From a virus (Duplodnaviria > Heunggongvirae > Uroviricota > Caudoviricetes): DNA of 4,803 nt. The stretch is taken from IMG/VR virus record IMGVR_UViG_2713896785_000008. One strand, 5' to 3'. Positions within the stretch are counted from its first letter, which is position 1. The number at the start of each line of letters is the position of its first letter. Shown here piece after piece: positions 1,260-4,786 of this stretch. The translations under genes were made by a program, and so were the position numbers. The notes below the pieces were generated by a model. That model was not told the DNA's origin and made no database searches. It was given only the letters and a program-made list of their open reading frames with translations.

Positions 1260-2019
1260 TCAGTGAACGGTATCGAGCAGCTTTAACAGCTCAGGGAATC
1301 GGGATTCGAAGAAATGCGGCTGCGTNNNNNNNNNNNNNNNNNNNNNNNNNNNNNNNNNNNNNNNNNNNNNNNNNNTCGCGCTGCTCGACGATCCCCAGTT
1401 TCACCATCTGGTGATATGCCTGATTAGCCGTCAGGCGTATACCATACTGTTTCAGCAGTGCACTCAGTGACAGTGTCGGGCGGCTTGAACCATCTGGCGC
1501 ATCAGCAGGTGCATCAATGGCATAGCTCGGCATAAGTTCAGGAAGACCTGCTACCTTTGATAATTTCTGGTATGCACCAAGTTTCGAGGAGTTTGACAGA
1601 TTTAGAGTCTTTGCTGCTGATTCAAGCAGAATGACCCCGGATTTAATTTTGTCGGATGTGGTTTCTTCTGGTGATGAATTATGAAGCGCATCAAAAGTAC
1701 GTATCACTTTTAAGCTGAATGCCGGGCTGATCCACATTGCATATGCATAGACCAGCTCTTTACAGACATACGTCCCACCATTGCGCCCCTGAATGGTGAT
1801 GACAGGAATACTACGGGAATCTCCCGTAGTTTCTTCTTCCAGTAATTCCACAAGAGCCTTCGTTTCAGGACGACGCATAAACTCGTGAACTTCCAGCGAA
1901 CGGGAGGAGCGATTCTCACCAGCGGCAAGAAGAGCAGCTTTCTGAAGGTCGTTAAGACAGTAGTTAGATTCAAAGTACTGGCGCACAGAAACGCCATCAA
2001 TTACAAGCAACTGATTCAT
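1260..2019 (-). CDS. KilA-N domain protein (antirepressor/Roi-like), interrupted by a 50-N run
   Basis: ATG 2019-2017 preceded by GGAG at a 6-nt spacer (GGAGaaaccaATG). Translation MNQLLVIDGVSVRQYFESNYCLNDLQKAA...RPETKALVELLEE...IPVITIQGRNGGTYVCKELVYAYAMWISPAFSLKVIRTF fits the KilA-N/APSES-type pattern. The track's longer start at 2115 adds a K/S-rich extension with no RBS. The 3' end is uncertain because of the N-run at 1326-1375: the track frame stops at 1291, while an alternative frame (...FPELLKLLDTVH*) stops at 1262-1260 directly on the RBS of the next gene. Confidence 0.6.
1326..1375. other. Run of 50 N (assembly gap or masked bases) inside the KilA-N gene
   Basis: Directly visible. 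50 is not a multiple of 3 and the true length is unknown, so reading frame across it cannot be trusted. Confidence 0.95.
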
Positions 2020-2105
2020 TGGTTTCTCCACAAATTTCGGGACTGCACTCCCTTTTCGTTGATGCAAGATGAACTTACTGCGATTTTTAATAGTTATCAA
2101 GGATA

Positions 2106-2125
2106 CACTGTTCATAAATACAGTA
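2106..2125. promoter_or_regulatory. Consensus LexA (SOS) box in the promoter region of the KilA-N gene
   Basis: caCTGTtcataaatACAGta matches CTGT-N8-ACAG with an AT-rich centre; on the minus strand it reads TACTGTatttatgaACAGtg. It lies 87-106 bp upstream of the KilA-N ATG in a 150-bp AT-rich intergenic region. Promoter-like hexamers nearby on the minus strand: TGAACA-16 nt-TATTAA, or TTGATA-17 nt-TAAGTT. It is the only CTGT-N8-ACAG match I found scanning the window by eye. Confidence 0.5.
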
Positions 2126-2170
2126 TCTTTAACGAGGTAATACCCAAATTTAGGGTGTTGCTCAATTCCG

Positions 2171-2378
2171 TTACCGAGTTGCTAATTTGCAACTCGCTTT
2201 TTCGTACTTACTGATAGTGATCTCGACCTTCCCTTCCGGGATAACCGGTCCCCACTCCACCAGNNNNNNNNNNNNNNNNNNNNNNNNNNNNNNNNNNNNN
2301 NNNNNNNNNNNNNNNNCCTTTGTTGGGGTGTCGCCAGTACGTGTTCACGCTGGGCGGAAAAGGCAGGATCAGCTTCAT
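2171..2378 (-). CDS. rusA: RusA-like Holliday junction resolvase, interrupted by a 53-N run
   Basis: ATG 2378-2376 overlaps the upstream TGA (ATGA coupling). N-terminal translation MKLILPFPPSVNTYWRHPNKG matches the RusA N-terminal motif (LPWPPSxNxYYRH). After the gap, ...VEWGPVIPEGKVEITISKYEKASCKLATR* matches the RusA C-terminal region (...PVTKGGRLELTITE...). Stop TAA 2173-2171. With 53 N the two parts are out of frame and the protein would be about 68 aa against about 120 for RusA, so the N-run probably under-represents the missing sequence. Confidence 0.55.
2175..2204 (+). terminator. Perfect 8-bp inverted repeat (CGAGTTGC-taattt-GCAACTCG) followed by CTTTTT on the plus strand; terminator-like hairpin or operator
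   Basis: Stem 2175-2182 / 2189-2196, loop 2183-2188, T-tract 2197-2202. The T-tract follows the stem only on the plus strand, where no gene is supported. It lies inside the 3' end of the rusA-like ORF, so function is unclear. Confidence 0.3.
2264..2316. other. Run of 53 N (assembly gap or masked bases) inside the rusA-like gene
   Basis: Directly visible; see the rusA-like feature for why its true length is probably larger. Confidence 0.95.
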
Positions 2379-2701
2379 ACTTTCAGGCCCCTCTCATGTA
2401 ACCAGTGGGTTGCACGCAGCCTTGCGTTTTCCTCACCGGCAAGCAGTGAGTGGATAATCCCGACCGCCTCGCTGTCGTCGTCCTTCACCGCGGTATGAAG
2501 CGTTATCCCCCGGGCCACGCCACGCTTTATCGTGATGACGCCTTTTTTCTCCAGTGCGCGAAGATGCTCTACCGCTGCATTCACTGAACGGTATCCCAGC
2601 ATGGTTGCCACCTCCTGATTGGTTGGCGGAAAGCCACGCTCTTTCTGATAAGAAATCAGCATATCCAGCACCTGCTGCTGGCATTGAGTTAATGTCGTCA
2701 T
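2375..2701 (-). CDS. LexA-like DNA-binding protein: LexA N-terminal winged-helix domain only, no S24 peptidase domain
   Basis: 108-aa ORF. MTTLTQCQQQVLDMLISYQKERGFPPTNQEVATMLGYRSVNAAVEHLRALEKKGVITIKRGVARGITL aligns from residue 1 with the LexA DNA-binding domain as I recall it ([68 protein letters not shown]), including the recognition helix RS-NAA-EHL-AL-KG. The remaining ~40 aa are unrelated and there is no Ala-Gly cleavage site or Ser/Lys dyad region. ATG overlaps the methyltransferase stop (ATGA at 2698-2701). Confidence 0.75.
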   Translation of the reverse strand: MTTLTQCQQQVLDMLISYQKERGFPPTNQEVATMLGYRSVNAAVEHLRALEKKGVITIKRGVARGITLHTAVKDDDSEAVGIIHSLLAGEENARLRATHWLHERGLKV

Positions 2702-3351
2702 GCCGCCATCTCCCTGACCAGTTTTTCCGCCTGCTGGCGAACCTGCGCCAGAAACGCCTCACCACATGCCTCAAGTTCATCGCGCCCAATGTAGCTGATT
2801 GCCGGTCCCTTCCAGGTCTTGTCAAAAACAGCAATAGCACCAGCGAAAAAAGCTCCTGTCGGTACCTGCTTCTCGTCTTTCGGGATAAACCAGACAGGCA
2901 GTTCAAAACCAATACGCCCGCGAATAAAAGCAATATGATCTGCATCTTCCGGCCACCACACTTCGCTGGTGGCAGCTTTGATCAGGAAAACATAGCGNCC
3001 GCCCTTATCACGCATGGCACTGGCATGNTTCATGATGTAACGCATGCCGGTGATGTATTGCCCCTCATGCTGACTGGCGCGGCTGTATGGAGGATTACCA
3101 AAGGCAGCACCTTTAAGCTCCGCAAGGCGTTCTGACCAGTCATGCGCCAGCGCGTTGTCTTCCGCCGTGTAATACGCGGCACATTTGGCGTTATCACCGT
3201 CAGTGAACAGATCCAGAACAAACGGACCAAACAGGGTGTTAATTCCCCAGAAAATGTTATCCGGCGTGCGCCACTGATCTCCCACTTCCTTCAGTTCATG
3301 GGCTGGTTTATTCCGCAGTTCCACCAGCGCCTGGCAATATTTATTACTCAT
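2698..3351 (-). CDS. Phage-type DNA N6-adenine methyltransferase (Dam-like), orphan
   Basis: 217-aa ORF with the NPPY motif IV (…AAFGNPPYSRAS…) typical of amino-methyltransferases. ATG 3351-3349 preceded by GGGGG, overlapping the upstream TAA (TAATG). Two ambiguous bases (2998, 3028) give X in the translation. No restriction endonuclease partner in the window. Confidence 0.8.
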   Translation of the reverse strand: MSNKYCQALVELRNKPAHELKEVGDQWRTPDNIFWGINTLFGPFVLDLFTDGDNAKCAAYYTAEDNALAHDWSERLAELKGAAFGNPPYSRASQHEGQYITGMRYIMXHASAMRDKGXRYVFLIKAATSEVWWPEDADHIAFIRGRIGFELPVWFIPKDEKQVPTGAFFAGAIAVFDKTWKGPAISYIGRDELEACGEAFLAQVRQQAEKLVREMAA

Positions 3352-3445: not shown

Positions 3446-4438
3446 TCACCCCCTGAATCCTGCCGGGATCTGGCTGTAGTCCACGTTGTCGTAACTGGCT
3501 TTGAAGTACGGGTCTTCACGTTTTTCTGTGTGCGTGCTGACGGACGGCGATAAGCGCAGGGAAAGCTCATCCCATTTTTCCCGCAACTTCGACGGGCTGA
3601 GCACGTTACGGCACCAGAACGGATCGCGGCTGACGCGGCTGTACATCTCGCAGATTTGTTTGTGAGTACGACCATCCTGCACACACATCAGGCGAATTTC
3701 GTTTGCCCATGCTGTCCAGTTCGGTTCTTTGGGACGAACCACCTCGCCGTCACATTCGGCGGCCTGCTCGTACAGGGCGATGATTTTTTTCCAGAGCCAC
3801 TGTGCGCAGGTCAAATCATCCTGCGTTCCCCACTGGCGCTTTTTAGGGCTGAATACAACCGCATCAGGATGGCGAGTTAAAAACTCCTGTTCAGCCGTTT
3901 GCGTGTCCGGTTGCGAAGCGTCCGGACGAGAAGAGGTTTTATTCTCTGTAGTAATCTCTGTTGTATTCTCTGTAAGATCATTGGGCCATTTTGACCCGAT
4001 GACAGCGTGTCGTTTTGAACCAATGGATCGTATCATTTTGCGCCCATCCATCAGGTCACTTTGACCCGATGGAGAAGTGCATTTTGACCTGATGGATTCG
4101 TTCACTTTGACCTCTTCTAAAAGCTCACTTTCATAGTTGATCGTGTAGAAGTTGGTCATGTCACGCTTCGATTTATTGAGTTGCTCGCGACGCAAAACCC
4201 CAAGTGATTTCAGGCTTGCAAATGTGCGTTTCAGAGTGGACTCTGACCAGAACGGAAACTGCTCCAGCCACTGTTCTGTCGTGTTATAAACCCAGCGAAT
4301 TCCGCCATGCTCAGTGCCTGAATTCGTTTCATTCAGCCAGTAATGAAGCTGCTGCAACACAATTGCCTCATTCAGACCAATACGGCATGCAAGATCACGA
4401 TTTATCACAATGGGCTGGGATGTCATTAACAGGCTCAT
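3446..4438 (-). CDS. Phage replication initiator (replisome-organizer type: N-terminal DNA-binding domain plus conserved phage C-terminal domain; lambda O-like role)
   Basis: 330-aa ORF. ATG 4438-4436 preceded by GAGG at a 6-nt spacer. N-terminal ...PIVINRDLACRIGLNEAIVLQQLHYWL... is the characteristic replisome-organizer N-terminal motif as I recall it. An iteron array and AT-rich tract lie within the gene, as in lambda O. Confidence 0.8.
   Translation of the reverse strand: MSLLMTSQPIVINRDLACRIGLNEAIVLQQLHYWLNETNSGTEHGGIRWVYNTTEQWLEQFPFWSESTLKRTFASLKSLGVLRREQLNKSKRDMTNFYTINYESELLEEVKVNESIRSKCTSPSGQSDLMDGRKMIRSIGSKRHAVIGSKWPNDLTENTTEITTENKTSSRPDASQPDTQTAEQEFLTRHPDAVVFSPKKRQWGTQDDLTCAQWLWKKIIALYEQAAECDGEVVRPKEPNWTAWANEIRLMCVQDGRTHKQICEMYSRVSRDPFWCRNVLSPSKLREKWDELSLRLSPSVSTHTEKREDPYFKASYDNVDYSQIPAGFRG
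3936..3985. other. AT-rich tract flanking the iterons (putative DNA unwinding element of the origin)
   Basis: About 70% A+T with three TCTCTGT copies, immediately downstream of the iterons in the direction of rep transcription, matching lambda ori layout (iterons then AT-rich region). Confidence 0.45.
3987..4114. repeat. Iteron array: six direct repeats at 23-24 bp spacing, consensus CAYTTTGACCYGATGGA (putative origin of replication)
   Basis: Copies at 3987-4003 (cattttgacccgatgac), 4011-4027 (cgttttgaaccaatgga), 4034-4050 (degenerate), 4057-4073 (cactttgacccgatgga), 4080-4096 (cattttgacctgatgga) and 4103-4114 (cactttgacctc, partial). They sit in the linker-coding part of the rep gene. Confidence 0.65.
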
Positions 4439-4447
4439 GACCGACCT

Positions 4448-4786
4448 CTATTTCCCTGAATTTACGACGAAACTGTTCGAGCGGACTGAAGCATTCATGT
4501 TCATAGCCTTCACGGAGGTAGATAACCCGTTGTGTTTCCGGCTCCCAACGAATGACTCTGACGGGCACTCCGTAGTGATCTTTGAACCAGCGGTTAACTT
4601 GTCGCAAAGGACTGTCTCCTTCTGCCGGTTGAAATCACCCACAGCCCACTCTGCAAAGCTGTGGGTTACAATTTCCCTGTCACCTGGTACATTCACTGCA
4701 TAGCAATACTCCACCTTCGCTTTTCCACCCGGTACAGGAAGCGCAATCAGTTGCGAGCGACGGTAGTGTGTTGTTAAACTGTTCAT
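4448..4786 (-). CDS. Hypothetical protein upstream of rep (112 aa as drawn; frame of the 3' half uncertain)
   Basis: ATG 4786-4784 preceded by GGAGA at a 9-nt spacer. TAG stop 4450-4448 overlaps the rep RBS. The N-terminal ~58 aa look coding. The C-terminal half is Ser-rich and is overlapped by a more protein-like alternative frame (TTG 4607 to TGA 4395); see findings. Confidence 0.4.

Follow-up and report, generated by a model that had tools for sequence, protein, structure and literature searches.

Holliday junction resolvases of the RusA family have been known in the nin regions of lambdoid phages since the 1990s. These regions consist of tightly packed, non-essential genes, extend from the replication genes to Q and show ATGA overlaps between consecutive genes, and rusA is one of their known residents (PMC8022706). 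The same paper (citing Sharples 1994 and Mahdi 1996) assigns the rusA genes of both E. coli and phage 82 to nin regions of the lambdoid type; there and in PMC10956419, Mg2+-dependent, structure-specific cleavage of Holliday junctions is cited as established for the two enzymes. The E. coli K-12 protein, which is 120 residues long and encoded by the DLP12 prophage (PDB 1Q8R, 2H8C and 2H8E), requires D70, D72, K76 and D91 for catalysis (PMC10956419) and, like phage 82 RusA, belongs to the same Pfam family as the protein studied here. Closer still to our locus is WP_000767110.1, a RusA protein of 131 residues encoded by an intact CDS of 396 nt (locus MJ68_RS18320) in the closed E. coli genome NZ_CP027544.1 (strain 2013C-3264).

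The window (the whole stretch of 4,803 nt analysed here, whose long ORFs all lie on the minus strand) contains a gene of this type that seems to be cut in two. Besides single n's at 2998 and 3028, it holds two N-runs, one at 1326-1375 (50 N) and the other at 2264-2316 (53 N), and it is the latter that separates the ends of rusA. The 5' end (2317-2378, minus strand) comprises codons 1-20 (MKLILPFPPSVNTYWRHPNK), which open with the ATG at 2378-2376, and two nucleotides of codon 21, and the 3' end (2171-2263, minus strand) comprises codons 102-131 (LVEWGPVIPEGKVEITISKYEKASCKLATR) followed by the stop codon TAA at 2173-2171. As drawn, the two halves are in different frames (codon starts at 2378 mod 3 = 2 in the 5' half vs 2263 mod 3 = 1 in the 3' half) and the distance from ATG to stop is 208 nt (~68 codons), compared with 396 nt in the intact gene. 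On the evidence presented below, obtained by comparing sequences, we propose that this rusA is most likely an intact 131-aa Holliday junction resolvase gene of the RusA family, which merely looks split.

The closed genome was found by a megablast search of window positions 1380-2263 against complete E. coli genomes, which gave a 100% match in NZ_CP027544.1, underlying a KilA-N gene and an annotated “RusA family crossover junction endodeoxyribonuclease”; the surrounding region was fetched (L001) and used as the reference. The window segments 1-1325, 1376-2263, 2317-2997 and 2999-3027 are exact (100%) in L001, and segment 3029-4803 differs from it at two bases (3920 and 4032). In particular, the 5' and 3' ends of rusA are 100% identical to L001 4626-4687 and 4292-4384, respectively, that is, to the two ends of the annotated RusA CDS, and it is by this identity that the flanks are recognized as RusA termini. 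Between them L001 has 241 nt (4385-4625, encoding residues 21-101) where the window has 53 N, which corresponds to a net loss of 188 nt. The 50-N run is compressed in the same manner: it stands for 106 nt of L001 (3391-3496) in the 3' part of the KilA-N domain gene, the downstream neighbour of rusA (1262-2019, minus strand; 271 aa when intact), with 56 nt lost and with this gene likewise put out of frame as drawn. The long ORF listed at 1291-2115 across the 50-N gap is an artefact, the real KilA-N gene running from 2019 to a stop near 1262. The real locus thus measures 5,047 nt, the window being shorter by 188 + 56 = 244 nt, and the window coordinates are too small by 188 nt to the left of the rusA gap and by 244 nt to the left of the 1326-1375 gap. 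A preliminary description of this DNA had recognized RusA termini in both flanks, had noted that the halves are out of frame and that the protein is about half the expected length, and had suspected that the N-run is shorter than the roughly 200 nt it hides and that positions to its left may be offset; the closed genome bears out each of these points and supplies the exact figures.

The protein encoded in the closed genome is a RusA protein over most of its length. It matches the Pfam family RusA (PF05866) with 56.3 bits (cutoff 22.8), its residues 6-118 covering positions 1-123 of the 124 in the profile, and it matches the known structures 1q8r (E = 3.8e-18) and 2h8c (E = 2e-17). Its alignment with the K-12 enzyme extends over residues 3-120, with N73 conserved as N77; the two proteins differ in length (131 vs 120 aa), with small insertions in the N-terminal third. 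The catalytic residues D70, D72, K76 and D91 of E. coli RusA align to D74, D76, K80 and D95 of the reconstructed protein, all four of which fall in the portion under the N-run (residues 21-101), where the preliminary description had expected the catalytic Asp residues to be hidden; they are presumably present in the RusA of the source strain. The same description had held that its reading would fail if the flanks scored below threshold against RusA profiles. Searched against Pfam, the visible fragments (20, 30 and, when joined, 50 aa) gave no match even at E<=10, which taken literally speaks against RusA; however, such an outcome is expected because pieces of 20-30 aa are too short, so that a profile test of the flanks is powerless, and their identity to the annotated CDS is the result that counts. 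When compared with WP_000767110.1, the window shows no visible difference: both visible parts of its rusA are 100% identical in DNA to that CDS, and what it lacks is the middle 241 nt.

The closed genome also carries a second, related copy of this region (L142, CP027544.1 3,775,313-3,788,305), which was returned by an exact-protein look-up of the O-like protein of the window. This copy 2 encodes a 129-aa RusA that is 98% identical and is without the LexA-like gene found upstream of rusA in copy 1; differences between the two co-resident RusA alleles are confined to the last residues. Each of the two hidden stretches occurs twice in NZ_CP027544.1 and, among 5,426 complete E. coli genomes, is found in ~2,270-2,300. 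The visible stretch between them (1800-2190), by contrast, occurs once in NZ_CP027544.1 and is found in only 187 of these genomes. The alignment of the two copies contains 28 copy-distinguishing sites in 2,106 nt, and each of the four positions at which the window departs from copy 1 is one of them: the window has an n at 2998, within the Dam methyltransferase gene, where copy 1 has C and copy 2 has T, another at 3028, where the bases are T and C, respectively, and the copy-2 base at 3920 and 4032.

With the two prophage copies of NZ_CP027544.1 taken to represent the source genome, we determined, for each k from 15 to 200, the positions at which the k-mers of copy 1 lose or regain their uniqueness with respect to copy 2. 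A k of 63 predicts all four gap edges (reconstructed coordinates 1325, 1432, 2319 and 2561), none of which is predicted by any other k in this range, and every edge lies exactly 62 nt past the nearest copy-distinguishing base. Uniqueness of the 63-mers returns at the right-hand edge of the rusA gap because copy 2 is without the LexA-like gene. To the right of this gap, the variant sites fall into six chains when those separated by less than 63 nt are linked, and the allele shown by the window is uniform within each of them (14 sites with the base of copy 1, then the two n's, which share one 63-mer-linked chain, then nine sites with the base of copy 1, and finally copy 2, copy 2 and copy 1). 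The value of 63 is the upper limit of the standard builds of some assemblers, such as the 63-mer build of SOAPdenovo.

We consider it highly probable (about nine chances in ten) that the split in rusA is a scaffold gap, left when a genome with two prophages was assembled by a de Bruijn method at k = 63, and that the gene itself is ordinary. According to this explanation, the source would be a draft assembly, made from short reads, of E. coli 2013C-3264 or a strain very close to it, and the window would be the nin-type region of a lambdoid prophage, ending with the start of the DUF968 gene and with Q lying further downstream. The source genome would hold a second related prophage with a 98% identical rusA, and the assembler, working at k = 63, would have ended its contigs exactly where the 63-mers were no longer specific to one copy. 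What lay between the unique contigs, short pieces common to both copies, would then have been omitted, and the scaffolder would have bridged these places with N-runs whose estimated length is in fact too low (53 for 241 nt and 50 for 106 nt). To the right of ~2900, the two copies would have been collapsed to one consensus, leaving the two n's and the two bases from the other copy. A strict unitig model also predicts a branch near 2902-2963, yet the assembly continues there; it would have to be assumed in addition that identical stretches of up to 96 nt were resolved by reads or bubble-merging, and that longer ones with nothing but isolated SNPs at their borders were merged. What we infer from these comparisons is that the two copies of NZ_CP027544.1 are also present in the source genome and that the hidden 241 nt are intact there, as well as the kind of assembler and its k. 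The picture agrees with what is seen when multi-prophage E. coli genomes (STEC-type) are assembled in this way: contigs extend k-1 nt past the last base specific to one copy, short nodes common to the copies are lost, the N-run lengths are estimates, and isolated variant sites at collapsed repeats are settled arbitrarily or left as N. Nothing in the window is unusual in this respect.

An alternative is that the source strain has a genuinely damaged rusA, with a deletion, frameshift or insertion hidden by the N-run, and hence a pseudogene, a reading to which the out-of-frame flanks would seem to lend support. We regard it as very improbable. The flanks are 100% identical to those of a closed genome in which rusA is intact, and the relatives agree with that genome. 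Among IMG/VR sequences, all 121 matches to a rusA flank run on into real sequence, none of them having Ns at the junction, and of the 94 loci holding both flanks, 91 have a spacing of exactly 241 nt and none has 53. Likewise, all seven flank matches in metagenome contigs continue as real sequence without Ns, and the five contigs that hold both flanks have them 241 nt apart. The gapped junction itself found no match in viral contigs, where patterns of the flanks alone gave 120 loci in one search and 20 in another, none of which has Ns at the junction. The flank patterns found no match in genome contigs, and when the whole window was compared with the phage collection the best coverage was 78%, with no identical record. 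Three of the 94 IMG/VR loci (L027, L060 and L080) do have other spacings (242, 217 and 1502 nt), and such altered spacing in relatives is a point in favour of a lesion; these are rare real indels or an insertion in rusA. The second gap, nevertheless, is compressed out of frame in the same way in the unrelated KilA-N gene, a sign that both have the same technical origin, and with the k = 63 fit no lesion is needed to account for the missing sequence. There is little chance, of the order of a few percent, that the hidden stretch of this particular strain carries a lesion or insertion comparable to those of the 217-, 242- and 1502-nt relatives and that rusA is inactivated; if it did, the result would still be an ordinary prophage pseudogene. 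In a separate line of inquiry, the occurrence of 59 distinct versions of the hidden stretch among the 94 loci raised the suspicion of a polymorphism hot-spot, an idea that was dropped since the diversity profile shows ~1-3% mismatch, not above the surroundings.

The N-runs could also be deliberate masks, placed by a database or pipeline over real sequence and unrelated to the assembly, given that some collections are described as having a few masked stretches. This reading is just as hard to sustain. Hard masking keeps the length of what it covers, whereas here 241 nt became 53 and 106 nt became 50. Moreover, a mask has no reason to place four edges out of four exactly 62 nt beyond the nearest copy-distinguishing base, nor does it give a reason for the n's to fall on two of the 28 copy-distinguishing sites or for both substitutions to be the bases of the other copy. 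The preliminary description had left the choice between a placeholder and a mask; the k = 63 edges and the alleles speak for the placeholder of a scaffolder and not for a mask. Least likely of all is that the Ns are low-coverage positions of a reference-guided consensus, since, even if read-mapping consensus sequences often hold single n's and N-runs, reference coordinates would persist in such a sequence (giving runs of 241 and 106 with frames preserved) and the hidden stretches, being present in two copies, would be expected to attract more mapped reads and not fewer.

Having argued for a scaffold gap in an ordinary gene, we turn to the setting of that gene, which the preliminary description had taken to be nin-like. 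The evidence supports a lambdoid nin-type region. The closed genome and many other assemblies have the order O-like replication gene, Dam, a 108-aa protein with only a LexA DNA-binding domain, RusA, KilA-N, a 171-aa protein, DUF968 and Q; from Dam to Q, the neighbours are those of the WP_000767110.1 locus. The O-like gene lies upstream of rusA, and the Q antiterminator gene lies downstream in both L001 and L144. Stop and start codons overlap as ATGA at 2698-2701 and at 2375-2378, the latter joining the start of rusA to the stop of the upstream LexA-like gene (2375-2701, minus strand), and in phage records that contain this block the annotations include “DNA replication protein O” and “RusA resolvase”. 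Inside the O-like gene, at 3979-4094 (also at 3936-3974), there are four direct repeats of 23 nt that resemble iterons (core TTTTGACCCGATG), an arrangement that would fit an initiator gene containing the origin, by analogy with lambda. In two relatives (L150 and L154), a single nin region holds two RusA genes, of 131 and 124 aa.

The C-terminal tail of the 131-aa protein (KYEKASCKLATR) spans a mosaic junction and is unlike even that of the co-resident allele. A terminator-like hairpin followed by CTTTTT lies at 2175-2196 on the plus (antisense) strand, overlapping the final rusA codons; its position matches that of the mosaic boundary (~2195) at which the widespread rusA block meets the rare module at 1800-2190.

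The neighbours of rusA also offer some observations on possible regulation. The 108-aa product of the LexA-like gene, which is translationally coupled to rusA, matches the LexA DNA-binding domain of PDB 1lea over residues 2-69 (E = 7e-16) and has no S24 self-cleavage domain; from its sequence, it could act as a non-cleavable LexA mimic. Within the spacer at 2020-2170, the sole sizeable intergenic one, there is a LexA-box-like palindrome (CACTGTTCATAAATACAGTA, of the form CTGT-N8-ACAG) at 2106-2125 (core 2108-2123), ~90 nt upstream of the start codon of the KilA-N gene. The CTGT-N8-ACAG pattern has one match in the window against 0.08 expected, and the palindrome departs from the E. coli consensus at four positions. 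Near this site, no sigma-70 promoter of the consensus type was detected, and a search of the literature for a circuit of LexA box, KilA-N and LexA DNA-binding domain returned nothing directly relevant. The site may place the KilA-N gene under SOS-linked control, and its proximity to a gene for a protein with only the LexA DNA-binding domain is a mildly novel lead, which stands outside the finding on rusA.

The importance of the present results lies mainly in data quality. Both rusA and the KilA-N gene appear broken solely through scaffolding, and to the right of ~2900 the window is a chimera of two prophage copies; frameshift, pseudogene and variant calls made in this window should therefore be read as possible assembly products. 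The biological importance is small: the rusA allele is already present in RefSeq and in ~40% of complete E. coli genomes, and this rusA is an ordinary, already annotated gene, a routine member of a prophage nin region.
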